From: Psammoneis japonica | Taxonomy: Eukaryota | Assembly (NCBI GenBank): GCA_008632985.1 | Contig: QPGO01000122.1 | Location: 62,001-126,000 of the forward strand | Direction of reading: 5' to 3' | DNA: 64,000 bases | Shown: piece after piece, positions 8,900 to 64,000 of the stretch | Position numbering within the stretch: the first letter of the stretch is position 1 | Layout of the letters: each line of letters begins with the position of its first letter | Made by a program: the position numbers and the translations under genes | Notes under the pieces: generated by a model | Seen by the model: the letters and a program-made list of their open reading frames with translations, nothing else | Databases searched by the model: none | What the model was told of the DNA's origin: nothing

Positions 8900-11040
8900 A
8901 CTACAAGGGGTGGATTATCGTTCAAAGGCCGTCTGGCTCCCATCCACAGGCAGTTGTGCTGTCAAAGGCCAAAGGGAACTCGCTCGCTGCGCTCCGTCCA
9001 CCAGGCAGGAAGGGAGGGTTTTGACCCTGTTGCAACTGGAACCGTGTTCTCTGTGGCAGCTGGCAACACCACACACTCTCTGATGAGATGAGAAGGGGCA
9101 CGATTTTGCCAGAGTCAGGGAAGAACACAAACTCTTTTTTTGTCAAGCTCAACTCCAGAGAACTTCTGCAGGTGTTTGATGTCACCTGTGCCAGATGATG
9201 GAGCCAAGTGTGCACAAGAGTTGATGGCTTCATTCCACACACTGCACATGGCAAAATGGAGAAATCATGAGAGGTTTCACTGGCTCTTCAGCACACACAA
9301 AACTTAAACAAGCACTCAGAAGAACAACCCTGCACTGTGCCTCTCATCTCTGCCCATTGCTCTCAAGCCCTGCCAAGCAGAAAGTCAAGTGGGAGGCTGG
9401 GGAGGTGCACATGCTCAATTCCCAAAGATGGTTGTTGTCCACTGGCAGCCCATGGCCCACTGCAGTGCTTTGAAATGCACAAAAGCTGTGCCAGAACCTG
9501 CAGACATCTTTGATTTTTTGCCACACAATTTTTGAGTGTGGCCACAGCTGATGGAAAGAATGGCCCTTCTTTGATGCCAACAACAAGCAAGTTTTGGGAG
9601 GGGTGCAGAGCCATCCATCTGCCCAACAAGCACCAGCACAGACCCCCTGATGCCTGTGTTGCCCTCTGCTGAACTTGCTTGAGAGAGTTTGCCAGTCTCT
9701 TTGCTCCCAGTCAAGAAAGTCTGAGATGTTGGTGGCAGCACACTTTTTCCTCTCTGAGCTCACTTTCCTTCAATTCAGTGCTGGGCAAAACACACACCAA
9801 CAGTTCTCCCATTCTTTTGAAGTTTGCTCATCATTTGTTCACTGCAAAAACACAATGTTCAAAACTTGCACCACACTTTTTCAAGTGCAGCAGTGCTCAG
9901 AGCACATCATGGGTTGTTGTTGTCCACATGTGGTGCCAAAGCAGCACATTTTGCCCAACATGACAAAGAAAATGATCACCCATGCCGGCACCAAATTCCC
10001 CAGCACAGTTGCAAAGTTGTTTTGGGAGTCATTTTCTGCACACCATTGCGCACTGCATGTGGCTGGAACAAGTCTTTGCACACCTTTGCTGAGGTTGCCC
10101 AAGCTTGCATGCCCTGGGACATTGTGGGAGAAGCTTTGTGCTGCAGCACTGCTGAATGTTTGTGCGTTGCACCAAAATGTTTGTGTGTTTTCTGATGGGT
10201 GCCGGCACTTCAGCTGTTTTGCAGGGTTTGCAGCAATTGCATCTCTTGCATGCAGTGCATGGCACATCCAGGGGGGGTGTCAGTCATCCAAATTCAAGAA
10301 GTGCACGCCCAGCAAGAGACAGACAAGTGCACTTGGTTGGGGGCAAATTTGGCACTGAAAGACCCAAGGCAAAAAAACACGGCTCTGACTCGGCTCAGAT
10401 GTTGTGAGAACCCAAGAACACATGCAAGCACAACAACAAAAGGACAGCCACAAATGCACTCACTTTGTGACTGCAGATGTGTGCAAAATGAATGCATCAA
10501 GAAGCAACATGCAGCACCTGTTTTTGCACAAAAAAAACTCCTTTGCATCTCTGCCCTTGTTCGAGCTCGTCCTCACTCAAGCTCTGTTTTGAGCAAGGTT
10601 TCCCAACATGTGACCACCAGCACAATCCCACAACACCACCATCAATGCCTCTCATTGTGTCAACCAGCCCACTTTGCATGGCATCCTCCAATGTGCTTGA
10701 ATCTTGACTCAATGGCATTGGCGATGCGTGTGGCGACACATGGCTCGCGTGGCTTGCAATGTGGCTCAACATCTCCATTTGGCAGTGCTGCACCCATTGC
10801 ACTTTTCTGTTGGGACTCCATGTGACCAAAGGGGTCTGGCAACTGTCACGTTGGCATTGCCATCCATGTTGTTGCACTTTTGATGAAAAACCAGCAGATG
10901 CCAAAATGCCGCTCCTCAACACAAGCGCAGCTTGTGTGTGAGAGAGAGAGAGAGAGAGACAGCAGAACCAAGTCATCCACGGAAGGACACAGAGCACATC
11001 CAGAAAGGGGAGTTCCTAATTGTTGAGACTGAATGGGAGC
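8900..11040. other. TpA/CpG-depleted degenerate block, probably a decayed unclassified transposon; (GA)n tract near 10939-10959
   Basis: TA is nearly absent over ~2 kb; the six-frame ORFs lack Tyr and are Cys/His/Gln-rich; no domain recognised. Confidence 0.6.
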
Positions 11041-11350
11041 AAATCATTATTTGGCAACCTCAGTCATTGTCAACTCCTCTGGCCGATGCTTCTCTTTTTT
11101 GAAAAAAGAATGTTGGGGCATTCTGCGAGAGATTTCATGTCTCCTTCGTTCTTCAGACACATTAATTAATCCAATCATGTATACACACAGCGGTTGAACG
11201 GTCGGTAATTGGCAATAAAATATATCATCACGAAGACAAATTTAGGAATTCTTGCGAATTCCAAACTGATGATGGGTTGGGTCTTCTGAACTCTCGCATC
11301 GTCGAGCATGGCGTTTCCTGTTTGCGCTTTCAAACAAAAAAAGAAATACC

Positions 11351-13150
11351 ATGTGCTACCCCAAGTCGATTTGGGACTTCTTTTGCTGTTGCTGTCCTTC
11401 TCTATACAAGGTAGAGGATGAGGATGATGAAGAAGTGACTGACAAGTCAGCCGAGAATCTGTCTCACGTTGGCATTGCTGCCTACCGCACTCTACGAAAG
11501 AACTTTCCTCGCGCCCATCACAGCTGTTGGAACGTTACGAGTGCGGTTGTAGTTGGCGACTTGCAGCAAACGCCTCGAGAGCTTGTGTACGAAGACCCTC
11601 CCCCGGATCATGACGAGTGGTTCGTCGACAAAATGTGCAGCGTCTTGTGCAAGACGCGTGTGTGGTGTGATGTGATGAGTCTTTCGCCGCCAGATGGGCT
11701 GTTTCTAGAACGGATCCAGCAAAGCTTAAAGACAGTCGCCGAGAACAACAAGGACAATACATCGCCTGTCATTGTTCGATTCATGTTTGGGAATATTGTT
11801 GGTATGCCCGTCAACTGTACTAAAGTCATCAAGCAACTTACGAGAGAGCTGCCACCAGACGCGAATATCCACCTGTGGGTCGGTGCATGGAGGAAGGGTG
11901 TTACTTGGAATCATGCGAAAATAGTTGCCGCAGACGGACGATTCCTTCACACTGGTGGACACAATCAGTGGCATTATCATTACCTGAAACATAATCCTGT
12001 TCACGATGTGAGCTTGGAGATGGAGGGACGAGTGGCTCATGATGCGCATCGTTTTGCTAACGAGCAGTGGCGTTTTATCCAGCGTATTCAGGTTACCGCT
12101 TGCGGATGGGTGGTGGATAAAATGCCCGATGGGTTACCTATTGCGGCAAAGACACGAGTTACGGTGAGTGAGTATCCCTCCTTTCCAAAGGCCTCCATCT
12201 TTCCGCCGCAGTATGAACCAACTCTGGTGGATCGATACACGATTGAAAATGCTGTTCCAGTAATTAGCATTGGACGTCAAGGGACGCTTCACTGGCGGAC
12301 AAGACCATCTGATAATGCCATTTTGGCGATGCTTGGGAGCGCAAAGGAGATTATTCGCATGGTGCTGCAGGATCTCGGACCGGTATGCATCCCCGGAACG
12401 AAGATTCCTTTACCTGGTTGTGTCTGGCCAAAGGAATACCTGTCTGCATTGGGGAGTGTGTGAGTATCTTGTTGTGATATGGATGTTCTCGTGTGCATTG
12501 GGATACAAACTTGGTGATGTTCCATTCTCACTTTTCCCAATCGCCGTTGTTTTTGATTCAGCATATGGGAGAAAGGTGTGGATGTAGAGATTGTTCTCAG
12601 CAATCCGGGGAGCATCCCTGGTGGTCTAAAAGCCACCGAAGCTTGTTATGGAAATGGGTGGTCGTGTGTTGACGTGGCTGCTGAAATTATAAAGACCGTT
12701 CAGGTCCAGTTTCCTGAAGCGAATGATTCGCAATTACGCAAAATGGTGGCGGAGAATTTACGGGTATGCTTTTTGAAGGAACCATTGGGGGCGTCGTTTA
12801 GCGACGGAACGACTATGGGATTGCATTCCAAGCATTTCATCATCGATGATGTGTGTGCATACATTGGTTCACAGAATCTTTACGTTTGCGATTTGGCGGA
12901 GTGGGGTGTGGTTGTGGATGACGAAACAGCGACCAAGAAAATGATTGATGAGTATTGGTCTAGAATTTGGCGCTATTCTTTCACAAACACGGATTGCGAT
13001 GTACAGGAAGTTATGGATGGTCTCAAGATTGATCGTGACGCTGAGCAGCAAAACTTTTTTTCCAATCCAATGGAGAAGAGAAAGATGCAAATGGAAATGG
13101 CGAAAATGCAAACGCCTACGCGGAACATGGGATATGAAAGTGACGAATAA
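11351..13150 (+). CDS. Phospholipase D superfamily protein with two HKD motifs; exons 11351-12459 and 12562-13150
   Basis: HxKxxxxD motifs WNHAKIVAADG and LHSKHFIIDD..AYIGSQNLY; intron 12460-12561 (GTGAGT...TTCAG) restores the frame. Confidence 0.9.
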
Positions 13151-13329
13151 GCAGTGTCACTAAAGCAATTAGTTACGCCGTTGATGATAAGCAGCTTTTT
13201 CTCTCTTATGAGGCATGCAAACTTTGTTTTTCAGACTGTGTCTTCTCCATTTCTGCCCTCTCGTCCCTCTCTCCTTCACTTGAGACACATGAGGATCCAA
13301 AACAGTGCACAATGGCCGCTCGGATCCTC

Positions 13330-15130
13330 AGATTCTCATGGGTGTGCGCTGATGACTTGGCTCGAGAGTAAATCCTGACGGTCTGTGTTCCAGCCTGGGC
13401 TCTCGGGCCTCTGCTACCGCAACTCTTTCCTCTCCGACACTTGCTCTACCCTTTCTTCCAAAGTGCCCAAGCTCCTTTCTTGCCTTCATGACAAGCAAAC
13501 GCAAATTCAGCTTTACAAACACTGCTTCGTTCCTTCTTCCGCTCACCTTCTTGGTGCTGACTTCTGCCACATTGGTGACCCTGACAACCTGCCTGATCCC
13601 TTCCTTTGGACTTCCTCCTTTCAAGACTTCCTCCTCACTGCTGTTCACTGCTTCCTTTGATGTGCCTTCACCCATGCTGATGCTCTTCCTCCTCACTCCC
13701 TTGCCACAACTGTTCACCGCTTCCTTCAATGCACTTCCACCCATGCCAATGCTCTTCCTCCTCACTCCCTTGCCATCACTTTTCTGCCTTCTTCTCTTTG
13801 CGGCATTGGCCTTCAGGATCCTGCTGTCACCACCATTCCATCCTTCCTCATCTCTCTGCTCCATTCCTTCTGCTTTGCCACATGTGAAGCACAGCTCCCA
13901 TCTGGTGACAGCCTTGATCTCCCACAATGCTTCTGTCTGTCCCTCTCCTCCTGGAACAACCCTTGCTCTCTCCTCTGCATCTGCACTCTCTTTTGTCACT
14001 TTGCTTCTTCCCCCCTTTCCTCCAATTTGCCTTTTTGTCCTCCAACTCTTCCTGTTTTGGTCAAGTCAGCAATGCTTCCTGATTTGGCACATTGACTTTG
14101 CCATGCTCATTTGATGTCCAACTTGCTCTCCCTTCCTTTTTATCTCCTCTCACCAGCCTCCCGCTTCACTCCCTTTTTTGGCATCTCACTGCCTCCCGCC
14201 TTGCCACCAAGGAGTGTGCACCATGGCTGTTCAATGCAAGCTTCATCTCCCAGTGCTTCCTTCTTCTCTTGTTGTTGCCACTCCCTGTCCATGTGGTCAC
14301 ACTGCTCTCTTGATGCCTTTGGGGATCATGCCTTCACCTGTGACAAGGCAGTCACAAGTCCAAGCTCTTTAATGGCATTCTTTGTGATGCCATCTCTGTT
14401 CTCATGTGCACACTCTTGGGCCCCATGCAAAACTTTGCCATTCTCCCAACAACACTCACCTCGAGCCTGCAAATCTTCTTCCACACCACCCCCTCCTTCA
14501 CCCAGCTGTTGTTGGCATTGCCATCCCACCTCCCACCTCTCTTTCTGCTCCCTCCCATCATTGAAACATTGCTGTCAATGTCACCATTCCCAAAGCTCCT
14601 CCTTGCCATCCTCTCCTGATCTGCCTGCACCCCTTCTTCTCTTGTTTTAACCAAGGCACACTGTGCAAGTTCAAGGTCAAAGTTTTCCGGCCCTTCCATG
14701 TCTTCTTCTGATGGCTCTCTTGCAATTCAATCCCTCAATGCCAATGTGGTCTTTCTTCTTCCTTTTGCTGTTGATCTTCTTGGTGGCTGACCTCACCTTC
14801 ATTTTCCATTGGCTCCTCTTTGGCATGTCTTTGCCTTCCTTCTGCTCTCAGCTCAAGCCTCCTGACCCAACTCTTCCACTTTGCAGCACTCTGACACTTC
14901 CTTCAATGCCTTCTCTTGTGCTCTCTCTTCACCCTTCACTCTCCTCTCCTCCACTGACTTTGCTTGGCACCAAATCACCTCTGTCCATTCTGGCAGTGCT
15001 CATCATTCTTCTTCTGCTTCTCAACAGGCTGTGCAAACCCTTGGATGCAACATTGTGCATCACTCCACCGCCCACACCCTTTGCTTCCTCTCTGCTCTCT
15101 GCTCTCTTTCTTTTCTGGCTCCTGTTTTAA
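13330..15130 (+). mobile_element. Decayed 3' part of a non-LTR retrotransposon with a restriction-like endonuclease (CRE/R2-type)
   Basis: Frameshifted CPCG..LDAFGDHAFTC zinc knuckle at ~14286-14342, then EPANLL..HPAV (cf. EP..RPAD) and IAVNVTI (cf. AxDVT) endonuclease-like remnants; TpA/CpG depleted. Confidence 0.6.
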
Positions 15131-15379
15131 AATGCCCCACACACTGCCTTGTGTGCCCTTTCTTTCCTCCCACCCTTGCAGCTCCTTTGACATGCCAACT
15201 TTTGCTGCTCACCTCAATGCACAAGCACCTTGTCCAATCTCTCACATGTCCAGGACATGCTGCCAAAACTGTCAGGCTCTGTGTGGGCCACGTTGTTGGA
15301 CCTTGATGTTGGTTGCTGTTCCACCTGATTGGATGATGTCAGTGAAAAGCTCTGCACACTCATTTTACCATTGGGAAGT

Positions 15380-17030
15380 GCAACATGCTGGCATTGCCCA
15401 TGGAGTTGTGCAATTCACCAGACACACCTCAGGAGAAAATGTCAACCTCATTTGAGGATCTGTCATTGATGCAAACATGATCATTTGACCTTCTCATTGT
15501 GTGACAAAAGAAGGCACCCACATGAAGACAGATCATCTTGAGAAACTTGACCAAGTCTCAATGCAAGGTGACAAAGTCTCATTTCTGTCGGGCCCAATTA
15601 AAGTGTTTTGGGGTGTGTGGTCAACCAGAAAGGAAATTGCCTGACACCTGCTAAAGTTGAAGCCATTGAGCACATTGCAAGAACTGCAAACAACAAGTCC
15701 ACACTCCACTCATTCACGGGTGTGGTTTTGGCACCCCTTGCAAGACTTGTGATCATGGCTGTCAAGTGGAATGGGGCACCTGTTGAAGATGAGGCATTTG
15801 AAACTGTCAGTCAAGCATTGTCTGAACATGTGTCTCATTGGCACATCCAGACTTCAACAAACCTTTTGAGATGCATGCCAGTGCCTCTCTGAACATCAGT
15901 TGGGAGCAGCAACATCCCAGAATGACAAACCCACCATTGCATTTTACAACAGAAAGCTCAACAGTGTGCAATTGAGCTGCAAATCAAGTGCAAGCATTGC
16001 CACAGGAGACAAAACATGCACAGGACACAGCATCATGGGAAGCTGCCAGAACAGGTGGCTGAGATGATCCCTTGGGGGAGACTCTGTGTGCAGACATGAC
16101 AGGGCCCTGCAAAATTCAAAAACATGGGCAGCAAAGAAAACTTGCAATTGTGGGCAGTTGCAATGATTGTCCCAGCAACTGGCCAGTTTGAGATCAAGGA
16201 AGCATCTGCAAAAAGTTTGCCAGTGGCCAGACCAGGTCATCCATGACTGTGGGACAAAATTCATGGCAGAGTTTAGCCAGATGACACAGAATAACTCAGG
16301 CATCTAGAAGAAGCCCACAAGAGCAAAAGAAACCCACAGGCAAATGCCACAGTGAGGCATGCACACCAGACACTTGCCAATGTGACGTGCTCATTTTCAG
16401 CACAAGACATGGAGCCAGACAAGGAGGACCCCCCCCCCCCCGGAGTGGCACTTTGTCAGCCACAGCTTTTGCTGTGCCTGCCATGGTGCATGAGACCATG
16501 AGGGCAAGCCCTGTGCAATTGGTCTTTGGACATCATGCATTTTGTCCATTGCCAATTGTGCCAGGTGGAAACACACAAGAGACAGAAAGCACAAGCTCAC
16601 CTGCTTGAACAACAAGCTGTGCCTGCCATGGTGCATGAGACCATGTGGGCAAGCCCTGTGCAATTAATTGGTCTTTGGTCATCATGCAATTTTGTCCATT
16701 GCCAATTGTGCCAGGTGGAAGCACACAAGAGACAGAAAGCACAAGCTCACCTGCTTGAACAACAAGTCTGAAAATGCAAAACAGATGGAGCATCAACATG
16801 CAGTTGGACAATTGGCGCTTGTCAAACAAGAGCAAAAGACAAAATGTGGCACTGGCTGTTGTGCAGGCCCAGCCAGAGTTGTCCACAGAAATGACAACAG
16901 CACCTTGTGTGCTCAGAACACAGAACAGTGCACTGGCAGACACACACAATCTGCTGCTGCAGATGGTGCCCTGTCACCAGTGGTGAACTCTGATGCTCAA
17001 AATGTCCCAAGTCATGGGGGAGTGTGCAGC
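15380..17030 (+). mobile_element. Decayed Ty3/Gypsy LTR retrotransposon pol remnant (RT-RNaseH-integrase)
   Basis: In RT-RH-IN order: GCVVNQKG..PAKVEAI..LHSFTGVV, LAPLARL..KWN..EAFETV, LAHPDFNKPFEMH, IAFYNRKLN, WPDQVIHDCGTKFMAEF, SGTLSATAFAV..ASPVQLVFG. Internal ~140-bp duplication around 16471-16765. Confidence 0.85.
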
Positions 17031-19500
17031 ACACATCTGCTGGCCAACATGATGAGACCATGCACACCACTGCCCTCTTGTGTGCAACAGCATGGTGCTG
17101 TTCAGGTGTGCCTGAGAAACATGATCTGAGGAGGATGTGGCTTTTGACTTGGGCAAATTCAGCAGATGAACATGAGAGCATCTCCAAGAACACAGCATCG
17201 CAGTGCATGTCTGCCTCCTGATGGCAGCACAGCATGCCACAATGACACCACTCACAATGAAAGATGTGTGATGGCCTGACTCACACAATCCATGGTGCAA
17301 ATGGTTGATGTGACGCAAAATCCAAACAAATGGAAATTTGGTGTGATTCCCCACATTTGTGTGACCCTGCTCTTTCTGGAGCAAACTGGCTCACAATTTT
17401 CACAGAAATGCTTTTGCAACACAGCTGCATTTTAGTGGCCTGTCAGGTGCATGGGGCACATGGCCAAAGTGTGTGCAAGTCTACAACCACTCAGTTCATT
17501 TTTGCTGTTGACAACACAATGTTCATCTGATGCACATGCTTGCACTGTCAACATCACAGTCTGTTTCTCATGGCAGGTGCAGGGAAGCTCAGGCTCAATG
17601 GGTTGGCTGTGTGCACCACCAGAAGATTGACTGTTTGGCTGTTGAGCTGCTCACTTTGAAAGACAAACATAAAAATTCTTGGCATTTCCTTGGTTGCAGC
17701 TGAGCACATGTTGGCACAAAATGGAACATGTCAAAAATCACCCCTGCCACTCTCCAACTTGCAAACTTGCATGTGAGCACAATGAAACTGTGTGAACTTG
17801 CGGAGCTGATTTTTCTCATCAACATCTTCAAGGAGACACTTTAATTGGACAAATCATTGTTGCTGGGTGACAAAAAGAGACTGTTTGAACACAAAAATTC
17901 AAAAAAGACAAACAGGGGCCAATCCTTTGAACCCAATTATTTCCAAGTGAGCCAGCCATTTTGTTTTGCACACATGGCATGCATGGCTGAGATGGCCACA
18001 CAGCTGGCCAGCTCTGGCCCATCAAACCAGTCTTTGTTGCTGGTCTTGCATTGCAGCACTCATCATTTCTTTAAAAGCCCTGAACACAATGCTTTTTCAG
18101 CCAACACCACAGCCAGGCCTGTGCACTGCTGTTCCACTCTCTTCAGGACTCCACCTGGCACAAAGGCCAGAGCTGTCAAGTGCAGCACCAAAGCTGGAGT
18201 GTGGATGTCAGTGTGTCCATTGATGCTAATTGGCACAGAACTCTCATGCCAACTGCTCTGAGGTGTGCTCTGTTTGCAGTGTGGCAATGCTCCACCAGAC
18301 CTCCCCAAGTGTTGTGATGAATGTGGATGTGAATTTGCCACTGGCCATCAGCAGTCTAGTCATCTCACGACACCCATGATGAAGTGCACAACAACTGGTG
18401 AGCAGCCTGGTTGGAGAGGCTTGCAGGCCTTCCTGCACACGTGACAAAACTCTTGTTGACCCTGCTGATTGCATCTTGGGAAGCCAAAGCAAAATTCCAA
18501 CACCAGTCCGTCAAGCAAAATGCAAACTCCAACATGTCCAAGGATGGTGATCGCAGAGACATTCAGGCCCACAGATTCTGGGGCAGAAGGACAGAGATGC
18601 TGTTGTGGGCATTTGTGCTCCAGACATGGATGCAAGGTCATGCCTGTCCAAGACACTGGAACAAGTTCCAGGTGCAGACCACAAACAAGTGAGCATCTCA
18701 TGCCCTGCCTGGAGCAATGCAGCCATTTCGCTGCTTTCATGGTGTTGTGCAAGCTGCTTGGCAAAGAGGCCAAAAGCAGCACCTGGCACAATTTCTTCAA
18801 GGCTGGCTGATGAATGGCAAAAGCCACATCATTTGGAGGCACACAGAGCTGTGCTGCATCAATGCAAGAACAACACGCATCACAGTGGCAAGGGTGACCC
18901 ATTGCAGACACCAATCAATCTCACTTGAGCTGGGTTCCACACATCAAGACAGAATGTTGACCTCACCCCATCCTCAGACACTGTTGATAAGAAGCTCCCA
19001 AGACAACCAAAACCCTGCCAATGCAATGGTCATGGGCACGGCACCAGCATCCATTTGAATGTCACGAGCACAACATCAAAAAATGCACATGACAACCACC
19101 CCTGTGGATTGACATTTATCTCCCAATGAATGGTTTGAAAGTTATGAACGAACCGTTTTTTCCCAACAAGGCTGGCGTGTGACTGTCATGCAAGTGTCAA
19201 ACAATGCAAGATGAAATTTGTGTTTGTTTCTGTTCACAGCATTCAAGATTGGAGGATGCTTTTTGCTTGTGCAAATGCATGCATGAAAACCATGTTAACA
19301 TTGCAAACTCAAGTGCGTGGGTGTCATGACTGTGCAGTGATCTCGCTGCTGTGTGCAGACGCTCACAGTGTCCACACTTTTGATCGTGTTGGATGCATGA
19401 CAGCAATGTTGCAGCACAGCAGCCAAAGCACTTGTTCTTTTGCACAAAATGGATGGTCATCCAAACAAGAAGCAGAAAACAGATCCTCATTGTGGCTCTG
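17030..19500. other. TpA/CpG-depleted degenerate block, unclassified
   Basis: Composition only; no motif confidently recognised. Confidence 0.45.
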
Positions 19501-19637
19501 TTGAGGATGACTGAAGCACAACTCCAACTCTCATGGAGATTTGCAAGGGGCGAGATGACATTGCTGAATCTGGTGCACGCAGTCCATTTGCCGGGCAGCA
19601 GAAGTCAATGATTCAGCAAATTGTGAATGCTTCACTG

Positions 19638-19768
19638 GAGAAGCAGAAAAAGGAGAATGAAGCTGAGTGTGAGAAGCAGAAAAGGGGAATGAAGTTCAGT
19701 GTGAGAATCAGAAAAAGGAGAATGAAGCTGAGCATGAGAAACAGAAAAAGGAGAACAAAGCTGAGCTT
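19638..19768 (+). repeat. Four ~33-bp tandem repeats (GAGAAGCAGAAAAAGGAGAATGAAGCTGAG-NNN) inside a decayed coiled-coil gene (~19500-20575)
   Basis: Units start at 19638, 19671, 19703 and 19736 and encode EKQKKENEAE-x; one unit has a 1-nt deletion. Confidence 0.8.
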
Positions 19769-20759
19769 GAGAAGATGAAAAAGGATCAAGAGGAAATCAA
19801 AGCTGAGCTTCAGAAGCAGGAGGGTGCCACAAAGCTGAAAGCTGAGCTTTGGAAGCAGGTGAAGAAAATGAAGCAACAAACAGTTCTCACAAGTGGTGCC
19901 TTCAAACCGGCAAAGAGACATGCGTTGCTTGAAAGTGCGGTGCATCAGTTCATGGTGTTTCCTGAAAGACATGGAGAATTGTTTGTCAAAACCGTCTGCC
20001 ACAATGCAGCTCGCATTGTCAGTCGTTAGTCAGAGATCCTGGTGACGGGCAAAAGAGGAAAGAAGATCAAGTGGAATTTGCCAAAGCCTCATGGTTTCAC
20101 ATCAGAAGAAAAGAGTTGTTCACTGTTGTGTGCTCTTGGCAGACTTGTTGTGCATGTTGAAAATGTGGAGGCAGATGAGCTCAAAAACTGGACTTCTTCT
20201 CACCGCAACAAAGTCACACATGACGGAAGCTTGCCAGACTCTCTTTACCCCCATTTGCCAGATCTCGACATTGGGGAGATGGAACATGATCATGATCTGG
20301 TGACAGCACAGGTTAAGATGGCCAGGGAGAATTTCAAAACTGGACAGCAGGGCACAAGTGCACACCGACACGTGACTTTGGAAGAGGCATTGGAAGTGGT
20401 GGTGGAAGCTCTTGCCCACAAGGGTTTTGAAATCAGTGAGGAAATGAAGGCACAAGCATTTGCGGCTCTGGCTGATGTTTGCCCAAAAGTGGTTTGGGGG
20501 TGCAGAATCATTGATTTTCCACACCGATTTCATGACAAATGGAAAGGTTCAACAACATCAGACCAAAAGATCTGAATCTGCTGTGCTTGTGCTTGTCCCA
20601 CGCTGCGCTTGCAATGCCCCAGCTTGTTTTGCACCTCGCCAGTGCTGAAACACTTTCACTGCCCAAGACCTTGCCTCGGATTTTGGACTTGCAGATGTCT
20701 GCAATGCAACCTGTGTCTTGTGGAATCAGTTCATTGTTCATTCTTTTCATCCACTTTTA

Positions 20760-23700: not shown

Positions 23701-23880
23701 CAGACAGTCAGGGCCTCAATGGAATTGTCAAATGACAGGGGAGGAGTTCCCAGCATTGCATCCAACTGGCCCAGCTTGAGACTGAGGGTTTGAAGAACCC
23801 CATGTCATCCAATGTCTTGGGCTGGCGACTCACCTCGCTGCTGCCAAGCTTGATCACAGCCAACCCAAGCAACATTCACC
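20760..23880 (-). mobile_element. Possible heavily decayed non-LTR retrotransposon RT region
   Basis: Minus-strand remnants QLGVPNVC, SVLDDI (YxDD-like) and ASSKLGF occur in RT order; the match is weak and the block is TpA-free. Confidence 0.3.
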
Positions 23881-26071: not shown

Positions 26072-26499
26072 GGTGCTGACAGAAATACTGTTCTGTGGCA
26101 GTCGGTTGGAAAAAAATGATGTCAGGCATGGTATGTCCTTTCGGTAGAATTCTTCGTATGTATGACGTGGTACAGGAATCGTGTATGATGGATTGGCGGG
26201 CTAATGTAACCCGGCATCTGTGATGCAAGCAAGACGGGCACCTCCGCATCCGCCGCGCGCGCCGCTGCGCAACATCGTCCAGCCATCATCTCTCCTCCCA
26301 AACCCTTCGATTTCTCTCTACTGGTGCCCTTCGCACTGATGCTTCCCCAATCCTCTCGCTGCCTCTCCTTCCTTTGCTGACTGGGCTCTTCAACTCATTT
26401 GAAAAATCTTGGAGATCTGCAAAACTTGTGTTTGTGACAAAAATGGCAAACAATGTCCGCAGACTTTGACCTGCAAGCAAGCTCTCTCTGTGGGAGATC

Positions 26500-26760
26500 G
26501 AAGGTGCACATTCAGTTTTGCCAGATGCATGTGTGGCAGCATTGTTGCCATTTGGCATTGAGAAGGAAGTGCAAAATCACCAGAGAAACTGCCTTGCAAG
26601 AAGAGAGCTGAGATTTTCACATGGCCAACAACAAAAAATCCAGAGGCAGCTGCAAGTTTTTGTCTTGGTGGCAAGTGGCCATTCTGGAGCAGGCAAGTTT
26701 TCTCTCATTGAAAAGCTGAAAGGGACCAACATGCTTGGAAAGAAATGAAAACAGCATCAT
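26500..26760 (+). pseudogene. Possible decayed P-loop NTPase fragment inside a TpA-depleted block (26290-28070)
   Basis: VLVASGHSGAGKFSL resembles a Walker A motif of the GYSGxGKS type with Y->H; short and stop-terminated. Confidence 0.35.
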
Positions 26761-30169: not shown

Positions 30170-30281
30170 GGCTTCTCGTTTGACTGCCTATTGGAAGGCA
30201 ACTTTCAAAAAGAAAACTGAAGCTTCAGCTCAGAAGGTATGGCTCACTGTGATAGATCCAAGATAATGTCAATGCGGCCCA

Positions 30282-44535: not shown

Positions 44536-44539
44536 GAAC

Positions 44540-47100: not shown

Positions 47101-47324
47101 AACTGATGCACGCGCACCGCGCCCCGGCAGTTCGGGACTGACTCATTCGTGACTTGAATCAAGTCACGCACGCAAATCTTTTTTTCACGTTTCTGCTGAC
47201 AATAACTTCAAACTGACAACATCTCGTTGCGATAGAAGATAACATCGGGTTGCGATCTCAGACATTGAACGGTGAACATCGCGTTGTTTTAAAATATTCT
47301 TAGAGAGAGGAATTAAAGGTCATC

Positions 47325-48023: not shown

Positions 48024-48075
48024 AAATAAGTTGGATTAAAAAACATTTATAGCTAACAAGAATAGCCTAGCAGTT

Positions 48076-52891: not shown

Positions 52892-52989
52892 TGTGGTGCT
52901 GCATACCGTGCACTTGAGTATTTATGATGAGTTGAAATTTTGTACGCACAGTTACCCCACATGCGATATACCCAGGCTATCCAGCAGTT

Positions 52990-54770
52990 CCTCTCAGCCA
53001 GAAGAAGAAGAGAAAAGGAAAAGAAAGCAAAAAATGAACATCAATGAAGTTTTGATGCGGGGTGCTGTGCAGCAATGCCGCAGCACGCAGTGCAGACGGA
53101 CGCACACAGGTGCAGACGCGCCACGTCCCGGCGACTTTACAAGTGGTGGAGGCAGGCCGTTGAGGAACTCGGGAGTGGCAGGTGGGGTGCGTTGGGCACG
53201 TCGAATTCGGCACGAAGTGTCGCACGTTTGTGCGCGCAGAAGGATGTGGATCGCCAACGCCTGTTGGAACACAGCACACAGCAGTCAGCACACCTCTGTC
53301 ATCACGGCGTCAGAATGGCGGAGGAGAACATCGTTCCGTCTGGCAAAACAGCTCCGGAAGTCATGCGAGAACTCACGGGCACTGAAGGCATGACTGCGGC
53401 GGCAGTTGCCATGACTCCAACAAACCAAGAGTGTGTGAACGCAAATGTCACACAAAATGGAGCAACAGAGAAAAAAATGGATTTGCAACAACAAACGACG
53501 TGTTCCAGCTGCACGTGAACCAAATCGTGCACAAAAAAGACATTTGCACAATTTTTGCGTGGTCCCCAACTTACGATCGAACTTTCACCACCAAAAGAGT
53601 AGATTTGCACAAATGCAAATGTTTTGCAACACTGACAAAACTCGTGTGAGTGTTGCAATGTCGTTGTCATTGTGCTGTCTGTGTTTTTCATTGCATCAAA
53701 AGATTCGCAACACAACGGATGATTTTCGGCTAAAACATTGCCATTGTTTGGATGTTGCCTGAATGTGTCTTTCTGCGATGCTGCTTGGCAGGTTTTCCAC
53801 CTGCAAAGAAATCTCAGCATAAATCTGCTGACACAAAATCAGCGTTGAGTCTGCTGAGGAAGTTTGTGACACATGTCCCATGAGGATTTGAACACCCCTC
53901 AAAAAATCATTCAAATGTTCATGCTCTAGAAGCCCACAAAAGTCAATCCATCCAAGCATTTTGCATGAAAATGCTGCACACACTGAAGGATGCACAAATT
54001 GTGTTCAAAATCGATTGTCGTTTTGTGCGTCACCTGGGACTGGAACACGTCAAACAAAGAAGTCAGACGAGCCAAAGAAAACTGGAGAGGACAAGAAAAG
54101 GGTGCAGACAGATGCGGAACTGTTTCAGTCAGCAATGAACAAAGAAGACGGGGAGAAGATTGCGGTGGAAGAAGCAAAAGCGGCGCTCGAGCTTGCTTCG
54201 GGAAATTGTGGTGTCTCATCTGCACTTGTGCCAGACAACACGAGAGTGGACAGTTGTCGTGTGGAAGCAACGGTCGTGCCCAGGGATGATTCAACCATGG
54301 AGGAGCTAAAGGCAGCATGGGCGGCAGCACCACCACAGACTGGTGGGAGATTTTTCACCGAGGAGGAGCTGGAACAAGCGGGAGCAACGGAGCAGGAGAA
54401 GGAGCAAGCAAGGATCCTGCGGAACAAGCACAGACAGAAACAATGGAATGGGCACAAGCCACAACTAACTGTTTGGCAAAGACAACCGCGTCAATGCGTA
54501 AATTTCGTGCACTTGGACTTTCACTTGAGCCACCGCGGATCGAGCATGGACAGAAATGGTGGAATGGGCGCAAGCCACAACTGGCTGTTTCACAAAGACA
54601 ACCGCATCAACGTGCAAATTTCACGCACTTACACTTTCACTTAAGCCACGCACCTCGAATTAGACAACATCAACATGCACAGTTAACTCGTGAAACCTCA
54701 CAGAAGACAGAACGGTCAGAAGCAAAACAACCAGCACCACGCACTACTCTGGCCCCAACGCACATTTATT
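52990..54770. other. TpA-depleted degenerate block with CpG partly retained; ~115-bp-period duplication at ~54437-54648
   Basis: Composition; repeated GGAATGGGC.CAAGCCACAACT...AAAGACAACCGC...ACTTTCACTT.AGCCAC. Confidence 0.5.
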
Positions 54771-55070: not shown

Positions 55071-57558
55071 TTCCGGAATAGATTTGGCAACTTTCAGAAG
55101 AAGTAACCCGAAAGTTCTCTGAAAGTTGATGTAAATATAACATCACATGTCTGTACACACACACAACCTTGAAACGCGCCAGAATTTTTACATCATCAGA
55201 TTCACCACCACCCGCAAGACTTCTGCGATACCGTGCTAAAGTTCGAGACTAGAGACACGGCACGGAGGAGATATCGTCTCACAAAAAAGCAGACGCAGCC
55301 ACACAGCTGTCACAGAAGCCACCCGCAACAACAGAGCAGCCGTGCAGCATGCCCACTTCGACCCTTGAGGCGCCAATCATGAAGGCGTCTAGGGCCCCTT
55401 CTACCATAAGTGGCGATAAGTCTGCAATCAAAACGTTTGACGCGTTTCAAGACAAAAAACAAGACAAGCCGTTTCACGGATTGGAGGAACGTCATGTGGA
55501 TGGATGCCACCTCAGGACACTTGTGATGCGCTTCAGCAAGTTCTTGTCGGATGAGCCCATCTATCGGTATGACAATCCCTCCAACGGGCTAGTAGGAATT
55601 GACGGAAAGCAGCGAATTTTTGGAAAGGTCAAAGAAGCGCTAAAAATGAAGTTCCCCAAGCACCCTGACTGGGAAGACGAGGACAAGTGGTGCAAGCCTC
55701 TGTTCAAAGATGTGGCAAAGGCCACTGATAAAGCCAACCTCCTTAGCATGGAGCATTCTGACAAAAGGACTTTGCCCCTGGTTCCAAACGTGTCTTCAGA
55801 ATATGTTCGAGCCAAGCAGCGAAATACTATTCTTACGTCTGACAGAAATTCAATGTTGAGACGCGAGAACGGTGCATTCGCAAACGACATCGAGACGTTG
55901 CTTCTTGCTCTTGTTCTGCAATGCAATTATCCAATGATGAATAATGGCCCTCTTCAGCAGCGTTGCTGGATTTTGATGGGTGCTATGGCTGCTGGACGTG
56001 GAGGGGAAGTGAGGCATCAACGGTGTGATGAATGGTTCTGGGATTTATTTTATGAGAATTTGGAAGCAACGTGGTGTGAGCCGAAGACTGTGGATTTGTA
56101 TGGACTCCTCTTCCCACCAAACAAAAAGTCTTATCTCTTTGATCTCTACCATGCTTTCGCGTGTTTCTATTCTTGTGAGAAAGGTCTCTATCGTCCAGAC
56201 AGCATGGAGAAGGAGCTCCACAAGTACACTTTTCCAGACTTGTGGAGCGTGAGCGACAAGTATGTTGCCGCTAAGTTGACGTCTATTATTCGAAGCAAGG
56301 TCAACCCGGTTCTACAGAACGATTGTTCTTCTAAGTCTATTCGAGTTGGTATGGCTACATTCTTGAATTCGCATCGAGGAGTGTCAGTTGAAGAAGCGGA
56401 CGCTCGAGTTGGATGGGCGCCCGGAGCTGCCAATGGCAAGACTTACAAACGAATTACACCGCAGCTCACTCTTCCAGCGGCAAACGCGATGATGGGCTGG
56501 GATGATACTGCCGGCAAGAAATTTGCTCCAAACTTGGAATGCCTTGGGAGCCATGTACAAGATGATGTTGAACGTCTCATTGAAAAATTGTGTGTGATCT
56601 CTGACTCTCTTGCTCAATTTCTGAAAGGAGGGGAGCTGCGTCCCTTCTTGCGTTCTTGCACGGCTAGTGTGATTCGGCATCACGCTGAAGTTTCGAAGGA
56701 GCTTCGTCAAAACCATCAAATCGTGTACACGTTGGAGCGTGCTGCAGCAGAAGCGAAGATTCGTGATGGTGACACGGCTGACACCTCACAAGTGCTTCGG
56801 ATCTGGGGAAAGAAAATAGACGCTAGCTTTCAAGACCGCAACCCGGATCTTTCAAGTGACATCAACCTTGCTTTACAGATAAAGCAGCAGAATGAGCTAC
56901 TGTCTCGTGTATTGTCAGTGTGTGATGCACAACGTACCGAGCTTTCCGAGCAAGCCCACGCGATTCGCAACTTGGAGATGGCTCAGCTTGAGGCCAATCA
57001 GTCCAGTAAGAAAAGGAATGTTGAACTCCTGTCATCGGAGGAGGAAGATAGCACGACGGATTTTGCGGACGAAAAAACATCCAATCGAGACGGCGGCATC
57101 GAGTGCAACGTTGTTGATGAAAACGCCGGCTCCACTCAAAACAACAATGTGGCTGCCTATGCTGTAAGCCCACCAGATGCTGATGCCACTGCTGCTGATG
57201 ATGGTGACGCGCCGGCTGCTTCTCGACGTCGTGTGGATTCTGACGAGTCAGCCACTGCGACTCAGCCTGTCACGGCCTCCACGCGAAAGCAACGACCTCC
57301 CGCTGTCGCGACACTGTTCTCGGCCGGAGTTGTGAGTAAGAAGTTTTCAAACAAAAAGAAAAAGAAACTGACATTGCAGGAGCAAGTGGATGGCTTGGTA
57401 AACAGCACAGGCGCAAAAATCTCTCTGCATGCATGCCCAAGTTTCTTCAAGCAGCATGGACACCTTTCTTCGTCATCCAAGGAGCGGCTTTTGCACCTCA
57501 AGTTTCCAAACAGTGAAGCAGAGCCACAGAAGCTGCGCGCGAAAGTTCAATTTTTCCG
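55071..57558 (+). mobile_element. Internally deleted, inverted copy of the tyrosine-recombinase/RusA element (2488 bp)
   Basis: Reverse complement of 59506-61968 joined to the reverse complement of 57726-57752; TTCCG at both ends (55071-55075 and 57554-57558). Confidence 0.9.
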
Positions 57559-59133: not shown

Positions 59134-61690
59134 CTAATTCTTTGCATGTGGGTTCACGGGTTTTTTCGGACTAGTTCCAGAAGCTTTGGATACAACCTTT
59201 TTCACAAACCCTACCAAGACGCTCGTTCGCTGCTCGCCGATGGTTGATATGTTCTGATTCTTCTTGTACGCTATAACTCGAGCACCTAGACCTATGAAGG
59301 TAGGCTGTGCTCTTCCCTTCTTCTTGTTATCCAGGGGGCTCTTCATGCCAGCGTCTTCTTCCATCTTTCTCATTTTTTGCAGGCAAGTGTTTTGCACGGC
59401 GTAACAAACATTGTGGAATTCGACGGATGCATGGTCATGAATACGTATCGTATGCCACTGGTCTTCCGTCATGACGTGTTCTAGGAGCTCCATAGCTGCT
59501 TTAAACTTCTGTGGCTCTGCTTCACTGTTTGGAAACTTGAGGTGCAAAAGCCGCTCCTTGGATGACGAAGAAAGGTGTCCATGCTGCTTGAAGAAACTTA
59601 GGCATACATGCAGAGAGATTTTTGCGCCTGTACTGTTTACCAAGCCATCCACTTGCTCCTGCAATGTCAGTTTCTTTTTCTTTTTGTTTGAAAACTTCTT
59701 ACTCACAACTCCGGCCGAGAACAGTGTCGCGACAGCGGGAGGTCGTTGCTTTCGCGTGGAGGCCGTGACAGGCTGAGTCGCAGTGGCTGACTCGTCAGAA
59801 TCCACACGACGTCGAGAAGCAGCCGGCGCGTCACCATCATCAGTAGTAGTAGCATCAGCATCTGGTGGGCTTACAGCATAGGCAGCCACATTGTTGTTTT
59901 GAGTGGAGCCGGCGTTTTCATCAATAACGTTGCACTCGATGCCGCCGTCTCGATTGGATATTTTTTCGTCCGCAAAATCCGTCGTGCTATCTTCCTCCTC
60001 CGATGATAGGAGTTCAATATTCCTTTTCTTACTGGACTGATTGGCCTCAAGCTGAGCCATCTCCAAGTTGCGAATCGCGTGGGCTTGCTCGGAAAGCTCG
60101 GTACGTTGTGCATCACACACTGATAATACACGAGACAGTAGCTCATTCTGCTGCTTTATCTGTAAAGCAAGGTTGATGTCACTTGAAAGATCCGGGTTGC
60201 GGTCTTGAAAGCTAGCGTCTATTTTCTTTCCCCAGATCCGAAGCACTTGTGAGGTGTCAGCCGTGTCACCATCACGAATCTTCGCTTCTGCTGCAGCACG
60301 CTCCAACGTGTACACGATTTGATGGTTTTGACGAAGCTCCTTCGAAACTTCAGCGTGATGCCGAATCATACTAGCCGTGCAAGAACGCAAGAAGGGACGC
60401 AGCTCCCCTCCTTTCAGAAATTGAGCAAGAGAGTCAGAGATCATATACAATTTTTCAATGAGACGTTCAACATCATCTTGTACATGGCTCCCAAGGCATT
60501 CCAAGTTTGGAGCAAATTTCTTGCCGGCAGTATCATCCCAGCCCATCATCGCGTTTGCCGCTGGAAGAGTGAGCTGCGGTGTAATTCGTTTGTAAGTCTT
60601 GCCATTGGCAGCTCCGGGCGCCCATCCAACTCGAGCGTCCCGCTTCTTCAACTGACACTCCTCGATGCGAATTCAAGAATGTAGCCATACCAACTCGAAT
60701 AGACTTAGAAGAATAATCGTTCTGTAGAACCGGGTTGACCTTGCTTCGAATAATAGACGTCAACTTAGCGGCAACATACTTGTCGCTCACGCTCCACAAG
60801 TCTGGAAAAGTGTACTTGTGGAGCTCCTTCTCCATGCTGTCTGGACGATAGAGACCTTTCTCACAAGAATAGAAACACGCGAAAGCATGGTAGAGATCAA
60901 AGAGATAAGACTTTTTGTTTGGTGGGAAGAGGAGTCCATACAAATCCACAGTCTTCGGCTCACACCACGTTGCTTCCAAATTCTCATAAAATAAATCCCA
61001 GAACCATTCATCATACCGTTGATACCTCACTTCCCCTCCACGTCCAGCAGCCATAGCACCCATCAAAATCCAGCAACGCTGCTGAAGAGGGCCATTATTC
61101 ATCATTGGATAATTGCATTGCAGAACAAGAGCAAGAAGCAACGTCTCGATGTCGTTTGCGAATGCACCGTTCTCGCGTCTCAACATTGAATTTTTGTCAG
61201 ACGTAAGAATAGTATTTCGCTGCTTGGCTCGAACATATTCTGAAGACACGTTTGGAACCAGGGGCAAAGTCCTTTTGTCAGAATACTCCATGCTAAGGAG
61301 GTTGGCTTTATCAGTGGCCTTTGCCACATCTTTGAACAGAGGCTTGTACCACTTGTCCTCGTCTTCCCAGTCAGGGTGCTTGGGGAACTTCATTTTTAGC
61401 GCTTCTTTGACCTTTCCAAAAATTCGCTGCTTTCCGTCAATTCCTACTAGCCCGTTGGAGGGATTGTCATACCGATAGATGGGCTCATCCGACAAGAACT
61501 TGCTGAAGCGCATCATAAGTGTCCTGAGGTGGTATCCATCCACATGACGTTCCTCCAATCCGTGAAACGGCTTGTCTTGTTTTTTGTCTTGAAACGCGTC
61601 AAACGTTTTGATTGCAGACTTATCGCCACTTATGGTAGAAGGGGCCCTAGACGCCTTCATGATTGGCGCCTCAAGGGTCGAAGTGGGCAT
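59134..61690 (-). CDS. Tyrosine recombinase (~851 aa once a +1 frameshift at 60639-60641 is corrected)
   Basis: ORFs 60533-61690 and 59134-60651 join when one extra G is removed (the other copy has GG); R / S-K-S-I-R / W / Y catalytic motifs; long low-complexity C-terminal extension. Confidence 0.85.
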
Positions 61691-62254
61691 GCTGCACGGC
61701 TGCTCTGTTGTTGCGGGTGGCTTCTGTGACAGCTGTGTGGCTGCGTCTGCTTTTTTGTGAGACGATATCTCCTCCGTGCCGTGTCTCTAGTCTCGAACTT
61801 TAGCACGGTATCGCAGAAGTCTTGCGGGTGGTGGTGAATCTGATGATGTAAAAATTCTGGCGCGTTTCAAGGTTATGTGTGTATACAGACATGTGATGTT
61901 ATATTTACATCAACTTTCAGAGAACTTTCGGGTTACTTCTTCTGAAAGTTGCCAAATCTATTCCGGAAAAGAAAAATTGGTCGCACTGTCCGTCCGTCGC
62001 CATGCATCCGAGATGAAAATCAGACGTGGTGCAAGTAGCTAGTGTGGTGAATCATCGGCCGCGATGCTAAAAAGAAGACACTGTTGCACCACATCATCAA
62101 AAGAACATAGAGACAAGAGATCACCATCATTAAGATCTACGTTGACAATCTAAAGCACTGGTTTTTAAACACACAATTGCGCTGAAACCCCCAAGCAATC
62201 TCTCCACGAGTCTTCACCGGCAATCTCAAGATCCCGCCGCCGACGGTTGGTGTG

Positions 62255-63445
62255 TTACATGGGCTCCAACCACTGCCAGTGCTAGCAGCACACAGGCTCC
62301 CACTGCCACCAGCACCTGCAGCAAAAGGCTCCAACTGCCTCCAGCGCCACTGGCACACAGGCGCCCACCGTCACCACTGGCTCCCACCGCCACCACTGCC
62401 AGCAGTGCACAGGCTCCCACTGCCACCACTGCCAGCAGCAAAACACCTCCAATCACCACCACTGCCAGCAGCGTGCAGGGGCACCATCAACACCAGATGA
62501 AAAGAATCCAACCGCCTCGAATGCCAGTGGCACCCACCGCCACCAGACAAAAAGGACAGTGGTGCACAGGCTCCAACCGCCGCAAGCGCTGGCAGCTGTG
62601 CAGGGTGCAGCCTCCCACTGCCACCAGTGCCAGCATCATGCAGGGGCACCCACCGCCACCAGATAGAAATGACAGCAGTGCACAGGCTCCAACCGCTGCC
62701 AGTGCCAGCAGCTGTGCAGGATGCAGCCTCCCACTGCCGCCAGTGCCAGCATCACACGGGGGTGCCAACCGCCACCAGATAAAAAAGATGGTTGTGCACA
62801 GGCTCCAACATTTGCCAACGCCAGCAAATGTGCAGGATGCAGGCTCACACCGCCACCAGTGCTGCAGCAGCAGCACACAGGCTGCTGCTGCCGCCAGCGG
62901 TTGTGGCAAAAGGCTCCAACCGCCTCCAGTGCCAGCGGCACACAGGATCACACCACCACCAGTGCTGGCCTTGACACACAGGCTCCCACTGCAACCACTG
63001 GCCAGTGGCAAAAAAGCTCCAACCACCACCAGTCCCAACAGCACACAGGGGCACCCACCGACATCACATGGCGAGGCTCCAAACGCCTCGATGGTCACCA
63101 GCACACAGGCTCCAACCGCCGGATGCAGGCTCACACCGCCACCAGTGCTGCAGCAGCAGGACACAGGCTGCCACTGCCACCAGTTCTAGCAGCAAAAGGC
63201 TCCAACCACCTCCAGTGCCAGCAGCACACAGGATCACACCGCCACCAGTGCTGGCCTTGATGTGCAGGCTCCCACTGCAACCACTGGCTAGCAGCAAAAA
63301 AGCTCCAACCACCACCAGCACCAGCATCATGCAGGGGCACCAACCGCCACCAGATGAAAAGGACAGCAGTGCACAGGCTCCAGCCACCCCCAGTGCAAAA
63401 GCAGCAAAAGGCTCCTGCCGCCGCCAGTGCTGCCACATTCAGCCC
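62255..63445. repeat. Degenerate minisatellite array built on CACAGGCTCC(C/A)AC(T/C)GCCACCAGTGC(C/T)
   Basis: The core GGCTCC(A/C)AC recurs many times with irregular spacing; nearly TpA-free. Confidence 0.8.
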
Positions 63446-64000
63446 TGCCACAACACACAGTCCAGTCCATGAATTTATGTTGAAAACAACACCGTCAGAG
63501 ATGCCACCAACGAGACAGATCTCTTTCAAACTTTCCAACACATTGTCACATCTAGAAGCACACACTGTGGCATGGCTGCGGGAACGCACTGAAGACGCCG
63601 CCGCCGCATCATCATCATCGTGAAAGCGCCGTTTGCGTTGGCCTCACGCAAATTTGAATGAGGCCTGATTGGTGCAACTGCCATTTCAGCATCACCCCAC
63701 GTAACATTGCGCACGTAGAATCCTGCACAAGTTTTGTGAACGCATGGAAGGACAGGCCGAGTGCGACCATTTTTTCAAATCTCCACAGTCCATTGTGGAA
63801 CACTTTTGACATGCTAAACACGACCTGATTTGGACCGTTGGTATTTTAATGCATTCTACAGACATGTGGGCGTGCATTAAAATAGGTCTGGGGGTCAAAA
63901 ACTCCAAATCGCGACCCCCAAGTGTTCCACAGTTTCAAAGTCATCGAAAATGTCCAAAAACGCCTTCTGACTGCACTTTGGCTGTGAACATCACGGCAAG

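Follow-up and report, generated by a model that had tools for sequence, protein, structure and literature searches.

Across nine sharply bounded domains of a 64,000-nucleotide (nt) stretch of the genome of the diatom Psammoneis japonica (contig QPGO01000122.1 of assembly GCA_008632985.1, positions 62,001 to 126,000), the dinucleotide TpA has been almost erased in favor of TpG and CpA, whereas the DNA between these domains is of normal composition. This stretch, hereafter the window, is the one region of one genome that was analyzed; it has a G+C content of 48% and a single N at position 42612, and all positions given below are counted from its first letter. We consider it likely, with a probability of roughly 0.78, that the domains record a mutator that turns TpA into TpG or CpA in silenced, non-functional diatom DNA until saturation is reached, that it is separate from the loss of CpG in the same DNA, and that it may be an adenine deaminase with a role in genome defense.

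TpA-depleted domains in the window

Observed/expected (o/e) ratios for TpA, CpG, TG and CA in 1-kb windows separate two types of sequence, namely genic DNA with a TpA ratio of 0.4-0.8 and blocks in which this ratio is 0.00-0.10. The lowest TpA values lie at 9.0-10.5, 13.5-23.5, 26.5-27.5, 30.5-31.5, 33-34, 38-39.5 and 43.5-46.5 kb. In the depleted 1-kb windows CpG is at 0.05-0.3 and TG and CA are at 1.6-2.3, while G+C is unchanged at about 0.48. There are 46 TA-free runs of at least 200 nt, the longest of which extend over 1864 nt (21724-23587) and 1712 nt (9306-11017); given a TA frequency of 0.035, as in the normal DNA, the natural logarithm of the probability of the 1864-nt run is -66.6.

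A two-state segmentation, for which we picked the parameters, calls nine depleted domains that total 27,332 nt, or about 43% of the window (Table 1). These domains have TpA ratios of 0.02-0.08, whereas the ten normal segments have TpA at 0.43-0.62 and CpG at 0.82-1.18. The edges are step-like and sharp to tens of bases. For example, TA occurs every 15-40 nt until position 8916, after which the next TA is at 9305, and at several edges a gene starts only about 110-160 nt away. An initial reading made from the letters of this DNA (the sequence-only reading) had described TA-poor, CG-poor and TG/CA-rich blocks beside normal genes, which is borne out by both the ratios and the segmentation. Its list of blocks was essentially right, except that 40971-41876 must be added, that the block at 53 kb ends at 54.3 rather than 54.8 kb, and that 62.3-63.5 kb is not called.

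Pooled, the depleted domains contain 91 TA, 368 CG, 2963 TG and 3104 CA, where the normal parts would lead us to expect 960, 1467, 2028 and 2148, respectively. The deficit of 869 TA and 1099 CG (1968 lost in sum) is matched by an excess of 935 TG and 956 CA (1891 gained in sum), with pooled ratios of 0.05 for TpA, 1.77 for CA and 1.79 for TG. The other twelve dinucleotides and the base composition are little altered, G+C being 0.49 inside the domains and 0.48 outside.

Specificity and direction of the change

The process can be followed in two young duplications. Among the 28 differences between the units of a 2.6-kb tandem duplication, 18 are TA in the flank of unit 1 (32405-32785) opposite TG (12) or CA (6) in the flank of unit 2 (35014-35394), and 23 of the 24 differences between the arms of a 2.46-kb inverted duplication are TG (14) or CA (9) in arm A opposite TA in arm B; neither pair has a case of the reverse arrangement. 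Taken together, 41 of 52 differences are at TA, the other 11 being five other transitions, three transversions and three that involve CG, and 41 of 127 TA sites have been converted, with none converted in reverse. When counted by site, the inverted pair is changed at 23 of 88 TA, 0 of 128 CG and 1 of 2026 other bases, and the tandem pair at 18 of 39 TA, 4 of 45 CG and 6 of 2433 other bases. With divergence as a proxy for rate (in the inverted pair 0.26 for each TA site and 0.0005 for each other base), the per-site rate at TpA is roughly 100 to 500 times that of other substitutions. None of the 41 TA events is a transversion, and AA-to-AG events number at most one (at 55845).

Conversion also depends on the 3′ neighbor of the mutated A. 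It has affected 20 of 72 TAT and 13 of 66 TAC, against 4 of 49 TAG and 4 of 67 TAA (pyrimidine, Y, versus purine, R: Fisher p = 2.5e-4). An independent measure agrees: the 91 TA that survive in the erased domains are distributed as 49 YTAR, 23 YTAY, 16 RTAR and 3 RTAY, whereas normal DNA has, in the same order, 208, 378, 303 and 386 of them (chi-square p = 8.5e-19). On either strand, the process thus targets T-A-Y in preference to T-A-R.

Comparisons with outgroups indicate that TA is the ancestral state and that the change runs from TpA to TpG or CpA. In the older pairs formed by an intact guanylate cyclase gene (copy A) and two pseudogenes (copies B and C), changes from TA to TG or CA outnumber the reverse by 26 to 3 (A versus B) and by 16 to 3 (A versus C). 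The sequence-only reading had held such differences to be dominant in four copy pairs; this is so for the two young pairs, whereas in the two old cyclase pairs they are a minority, yet run in one direction. Opposite the 15 Tyr codons of copy A, TGY or CAY is found at 12 of 14 aligned positions in copy B and at 5 of 5 in copy C. Eight of these 15 codons specify a residue that is Tyr in 20-29 of 29-30 outgroups, and among them conversion is seen at 6 of 7 aligned positions in copy B and at 3 of 3 in copy C.

Two further comparisons point the same way. Opposite 23 Tyr residues of P0122, the intact protein related to a gypsy relic in the largest domain, the relic has Cys at six, His at four and Tyr at one (P0122/relic examples are GKYEYQ/GKCNML, MGYYHI/VGCCST and LAYPDF/LAHPDF), and the aligned relic totals 1 Tyr, 19 Cys and 27 His where P0122 has 23, 7 and 8. 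The arms of the inverted duplication differ at 18 residues of an 869-codon open reading frame (ORF), here ORF869, which has a single homologue in 5.8 billion proteins (P0121, 50% identity). P0121 can be aligned at 11 of these residues and agrees with arm B at four (Y257, Y447, T650 and L735), with arm A at one (V448) and with neither arm at six, two of which are Phe opposite a Tyr of arm B. Since the three outgroup tests (cyclase, gypsy relic and ORF869) agree, we reject a reversed polarity, resembling that of repeat-induced point mutation (RIP). The sequence-only reading had proposed a mutator making A-to-G (equivalently T-to-C) changes at TpA, and had named as findings that would speak against it an ancestral TG or CA and A-to-G change at equal frequency in all contexts. 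The proposal is supported on both counts, as outgroups do not place TG or CA first and the change is confined to TpA (23 of 88 TA against 1 of 2026 other bases).

Targeting, CpG loss and content of the erased DNA

The process is a DNA-level one that acts in situ, on both strands and within restricted domains. TG and CA products are nearly equal in number in both young pairs and are interleaved along the sequence, and DNA other than retroelements has been hit in place, including pseudogenes, the flank of a duplication and tandem repeats. Within tandem repeats of the erased DNA, TG opposite CA is the commonest adjacent double difference (7 of 12 in a 320-nt tandem at 44549-45195, 6 of 10 between two units of the block at 62262-63433, and 3 of 6 in another), the pattern expected if, once duplicated, the copies independently resolved what had been a TA or CG. 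Moreover, all 18 events of the tandem pair and all 23 of the inverted pair fall in a single copy, and at 41876 a domain ends within the stretch of cyclase copy B that is homologous to copy A. Hence, targeting appears to be regional, as would follow from chromatin or insertion boundaries, rather than homology-based. The sequence-only reading was correct to confine the change to bounded transposon, pseudogene and repeat blocks, whose edges are sharp, but its description of the process as repeat-directed is not borne out in the sense of homology recognition by RIP.

The loss of CpG follows a different course. Its ratio is 0.12-0.31 in seven of the nine domains but 0.72-0.83 in 40971-41876 and 52980-54298, despite TpA ratios of 0.07-0.08 in these two, and no block in the window has lost CpG without losing TpA at the resolution of 1 kb. 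At domain edges, a few CG remain about 100 nt inside the TA-free zone, and between cyclase copies A and C there are 19 changes from CG to TG or CA and one in reverse. Because TA was changed at 23 of 88 sites in the inverted pair while CG was changed at 0 of 128, TpA loss is no by-product of CpG decay. The simplest reading is that TpA is erased fast and that a separate, slower decay of CpG ensues. CG is methylated in diatom transposons, and the slower decay would be deamination of 5-methylcytosine (5mC).

Part of the erased DNA can be traced to its source. The largest domain contains a relic of a Ty3/gypsy-order pol gene whose sole match among 1.84 billion representatives, in an exhaustive phmmer search, is P0122 (E 7.3e-5), a protein with RVT_1, RT_RNaseH, Integrase_H2C2 and rve domains. 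Residues 245-983 of P0122 are collinear with 15248-16907 except for an internal deletion (tblastn, summed E 2e-25). Profile searches were otherwise unproductive: no Pfam family was found for the relic by itself (with E values up to 10), for 30 ORFs from erased DNA (three of them in 8918-11162), or in a six-frame scan of 13200-23900. No viral family was recognized by profile searches among the contents of the erased DNA, in which the gypsy-type relic and the host cyclase pseudogenes are recognizable, and a search for terminal repeats at domain edges found none. Upstream of the relic, positions 14001-16000 are strongly asymmetric between the strands, with a GC skew of -0.28 and an AT skew of -0.21. 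The same domain carries a 33-nt tandem repeat of 4.5 copies at 19638-19826 that encodes a Glu/Lys-rich, heptad-like peptide and may be what is left of a coiled-coil gag-like gene or of a host gene.

Table 1. Positions of erased domains, duplications and genes in the window (TpA, CpG, TG and CA values are o/e ratios)
Feature	Position	Strand	Remarks
TpA/CpG-erased domain	8918..11162		3 TA, TpA 0.02; CpG 0.21; TG 1.80; CA 1.84
Largest TpA/CpG-erased domain, 10.7 kb	13209..23876		37 TA, TpA 0.05; CpG 0.13; TG 1.89; CA 1.72; contains the 1864-nt run
TpA/CpG-erased domain	26322..28072		5 TA, TpA 0.04; CpG 0.19
Erased cores of tandem duplication	30344..32248 and 32948..34857		Two of the nine domains
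TpA/CpG-erased domain	38018..40235		9 TA, TpA 0.06; CpG 0.19
TpA-erased domain, CpG nearly intact	40971..41876		TpA 0.08; CpG 0.72; spans 5′ part of cyclase pseudogene copy B
TpA/CpG-erased domain	42788..47197		TpA 0.06; CpG 0.31; holds end of copy B, copy C and the 320-nt tandem (44549-45195)
TpA-erased domain, CpG nearly intact	52980..54298		TpA 0.07; CpG 0.83
G+C-rich tandem-repeat block, partly depleted	62262..63433		TpA 0.15-0.31; CpG 0.33-0.54; TG up to 2.4; periods 33, 103, 116
2.6-kb tandem duplication	30286..32893 / 32890..35502	+	98.9% identical; each unit is an erased core plus flank
Arm A of 2.46-kb inverted duplication, erasure in progress	55071..57532	+	Has most of the 869-codon open frame 55253-57862
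Arm B of inverted duplication	59506..61968	-	Keeps ancestral TA sites; frame broken by one indel; arms 99.0% identical
Degenerate Ty3/gypsy-order pol relic (reverse transcriptase, RNase H, integrase core; internal deletion)	15248..16907	+	Inside largest domain
Intact guanylate/adenylate cyclase gene, copy A	36092..37525	+	Normal composition; Guanylate_cyc E 5.9e-52; polarization reference
Cyclase pseudogene copy B, frame broken, partly erased	41317..43045	+	About 80-85% identical to copy A
Cyclase pseudogene copy C, fully erased	43848..44532		Within 42788-47197; 69-72% identical to copy A
THUMPD3/Trm11-like RNA methyltransferase gene	28493..30187	-	PF01170, E 1.4e-15

The genes around the domains are those of a diatom. 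The best relatives of cyclase copy A are diatom proteins with 41-58% identity, and all named relatives of the cyclase and methyltransferase genes come from diatoms (36-58% identity), with no near-identical protein to either in the collection of 5.8 billion. The methyltransferase gene lies between two erased domains, whose edges are 157 and 421 nt from its frame, and is of normal composition. Two frames on the forward strand, 1312-4422 and 5472-8639, are uninterrupted over 1036 and 1055 codons, have normal composition and match no Pfam family. In cyclase copy B, about 370 nt (42240-42612) have no counterpart in copy A, where the gap measures about 170 nt, and this segment ends at the N at 42612, which may mark an assembly join or a masked base. 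The tandem array at 62262-63433 has a G+C content of 0.54-0.61 and a strong skew of C over G and of A over T; it may be a block at an intermediate stage of depletion.

ORF869 matches no Pfam family at E <= 0.001 and has no relative in the PDB, and its AlphaFold model (mean predicted local distance difference test score, pLDDT, 41) is too poor for a fold search; it may resemble Crypton-type tyrosine recombinases. It is arm A, the arm with the open frame, that is undergoing TpA mutation. A metagenome scan with a fasciclin-domain protein encoded beside a domain edge returned relatives of just 47-54% identity and no erased blocks. Among 242 fetched homologues there was no Tyr-free protein, and hence this route gave no trace of the process in other organisms.

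Related systems, mechanism and alternatives

The sequence-only reading had regarded a TpA-destroying process as undescribed, which is no longer tenable. A full-text literature search for TpA-specific hypermutation returned one relevant report and none on diatoms. According to that preprint, 15 mutation-accumulation lines of Bigelowiella natans, sequenced by Illumina, had 302 new mutations, of which 231 fell in integrated nucleocytoplasmic large DNA virus (NCLDV) and virophage sequences; all but one of the mutations in the inserts were A-to-G or T-to-C, all of those were at TpA, and their rate was about 1000-fold that of the background (Mettrop et al., bioRxiv 10.64898/2026.01.13.699255). Hypermutation arose in only some clonal lines, the genome has 124 clusters of TpA-poor, CpA- and TpG-rich windows enriched in transposon-type domains and unannotated ORFs, and an ADAT2-like candidate is named there from prediction only (bioRxiv 10.64898/2026.01.13.699255). 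The likeness to our case, as far as the preprint describes it, extends to A-to-G and T-to-C changes almost exclusively, at TpA only, yielding TpG or CpA depending on the strand, restricted to particular regions and faster than background by orders of magnitude. However, the host here is a diatom (a stramenopile) rather than a chlorarachniophyte (Rhizaria), and the targets that could be identified are a retroelement relic, pseudogenes of host genes and duplications, with no viral genes recognized. Depletion is saturated (o/e 0.02-0.08), whereas the preprint gives a Rho of 0.45 for the NCLDV insert and a cluster cut-off of <=0.43. We also see co-depletion of CpG and a T-A-Y preference, whereas the main text of the preprint does not contain the words "CpG", "trinucleotide" or "diatom". 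On the other hand, the process was seen de novo in B. natans, while here it is deduced from sequence. What is new is the diatom host, the saturation, the transposon and pseudogene targets, the delayed CpG loss and the TAY motif, although the mutation list of the preprint may already show a 3′ preference.

Other known systems resemble the diatom pattern in part. RIP in ascomycetes likewise consists of heritable transitions at one dinucleotide in non-genic, duplicated or transposon DNA, inactivates irreversibly and leaves sharp-edged blocks. However, RIP converts CpA to TpA (C to T) and so gains TpA and stop codons, whereas here TpA is destroyed and no stop can be created; moreover, RIP hits both copies of a duplication through their homology, while here one copy is hit and the edges ignore homology. 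Changes from CG to TG or CA with a low CpG ratio, as decay driven by 5mC would leave, are also seen in the erased domains, but such decay accounts for only the CpG half of the pattern and lags behind the loss of TpA.

In our account, a mutator converts A to G on either strand at TpA within bounded silent domains. It prefers T-A-Y sites and proceeds until erasure is saturated. Its domains would be set by chromatin state or insertion boundaries rather than by homology, and loss of CpG by deamination of 5mC would come later. Its role would be heritable genome defense of the kind proposed for B. natans. As for the chemistry, we tentatively favor a TadA/ADAT2-like enzyme that deaminates adenine to inosine. 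In tRNA these enzymes naturally act on A34, which follows the invariant U33, and the same T-A context is seen at the mutated sites. The main chemical alternative, though an unlikely one, is a TET/JBP-type enzyme that oxidizes T, so that the resulting 5-hydroxymethyl- or 5-formyl-uracil mispairs.

Because of the genetic code, this edit cannot make a stop from a sense codon; it inactivates by missense change (Tyr to Cys or His) and by loss of TA-containing signals. Stop words are correspondingly scarce, with 3.4 TAA and 1.6 TAG per kb in erased DNA versus 15.8 and 14.4 in normal DNA, and this scarcity gives rise to long, spurious, Tyr-free ORFs on both strands. In 13209-23876 and other erased domains, both strands have stop-to-stop frames 150-290 codons long that overlap one another, and such Tyr-free frames would probably be listed as proteins by gene callers.

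Several points tell against our account. At one ORF869 site, V448, P0121 equals arm A, which favors the opposite polarity. T-A-T is the best context in the diatom, while the TadA tRNA context is U-A-C, which leaves the assignment to a deaminase weak. Of the 27.3 kb, only about 1.7 kb can be assigned with certainty to a transposon and about 2.4 kb to pseudogenes, the remainder having no recognizable family. Finally, the pattern might be an artifact of assembly or base calling, in which modified bases in silenced DNA (5mC at CG, and modified A or T at TA) were miscalled as TG or CA. If 5mC were read as T and modified A as G, as nanopore reads behave at bacterial Dam and Dcm sites, then exactly these two changes would result. 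We nevertheless regard this as quite improbable, since conversion reaches about 95-98% across 27 kb, whereas consensus errors driven by modification hit a minority of sites. The erased sequences have also decayed in independent ways, through frameshifts, through an internal deletion and through many further substitutions, the long intact frames of neighboring genes speak for a good consensus, and the same signature is reported to arise de novo in B. natans lines sequenced by Illumina (bioRxiv 10.64898/2026.01.13.699255).

Hypermutation of the deaminase type against selfish nucleic acids is also known from the ADAR and APOBEC enzymes of animals, which strike retroelements and viruses, and replication intermediates could have been edited, by ADAR-like A-to-I change on double-stranded RNA or by deamination of cDNA, before the altered copies were inserted. 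Edges sharp to tens of bases and the retroelement relic in the largest domain would suit such a history, and a 5′ T or U is a preference shared by ADARs (bioRxiv 10.64898/2026.01.13.699255). However, ADAR and APOBEC act with strand bias on RNA or on single-stranded cDNA prior to integration, whereas in the diatom chromosomal DNA was changed in place and about equally on both strands, including the host cyclase pseudogenes, the flank of the tandem duplication and one arm of the inverted one. The TG/CA discordances arose after duplication, and the hallmark of ADAR action on retro-copies, which is strand-coordinated clusters in retro-copied sequence only, is absent. In addition, ADAR prefers a 3′ G and disfavors U, while the order here is T > C >> G = A (a preference for Y), the main target is A rather than the C of APOBEC, and saturation would require many rounds of editing. 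Such an origin thus has little probability. Even less can be said for a by-product of repair in which deaminated 5mC recruits mismatch repair and a Pol-eta-like polymerase that mutates A at WA motifs (W, A or T), as in phase II of somatic hypermutation. This would join the two losses in one pathway, and TA is indeed a hotspot of Pol eta, with A-to-G its commonest outcome. Pol eta, however, also yields many A-to-T and A-to-C changes and hits AA, so that the lack of transversions among 41 TA events and the single possible AA-to-AG event disfavor this candidate of the sequence-only reading, as do the unchanged CG sites of the inverted repeat and the two domains in which TpA was erased while CpG is nearly intact.

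Two alternatives have a negligible probability. Pairwise differences are by themselves directionless and V448 matches the TG/CA arm, and one could therefore imagine that the copies we call normal underwent RIP-like change from CpA or TpG to TpA, or AT-biased mutation. In addition to the three outgroup tests, this would contend with the lack of any known coding or transposon sequence that is devoid of TA for kilobases, and with TpA ratios in the normal parts (0.43-0.62) that are not raised. Context-free pressure from AT to GC, such as GC-biased gene conversion, or selection against the words TA and CG would share with the data only the net direction from A/T to G/C at TA. G+C is practically the same inside and outside the domains, AA, AT, TT and the remaining dinucleotides barely shift, and in the inverted pair other bases hardly changed where TA did; selection on words is implausible in DNA that is non-functional.

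An editor of TpA in silent diatom DNA would have several consequences. A natural editor of A to G in chromosomes would be of interest for base editing, and the TAY motif provides a target against which candidate enzymes can be assayed. New events should be catchable in culture at the partly erased young duplicates (55071-57532 and 35014-35406), and the diatom offers an ordering in which TpA is lost first and CpG later. For annotation, erased DNA yields spurious Tyr-free ORFs and hides transposons from profile searches. It is possible, although doubtful at present, that diatoms and chlorarachniophytes, within the stramenopile-alveolate-Rhizaria (SAR) group, have in common a defense dedicated to erasing TpA, which would be regulated, heritable and a functional mirror of RIP, with a DNA editor directed to silent domains instead of homologous repeats and selfish genes killed by missense changes of Tyr. 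If so, the editor and the decay of methylated CpG would together push silenced DNA toward a state without either palindromic pyrimidine-purine step. A still bolder version would have one class of enzyme cause both losses, either by acting on 5-methylpyrimidines (T at TpA and 5mC at CpG) or as a dual deaminase of A and C. TpA erasure would be a second mutational genome defense in eukaryotes beside RIP, and the fact that a diatom shows it at saturation suggests a wide distribution among ecologically dominant algae.

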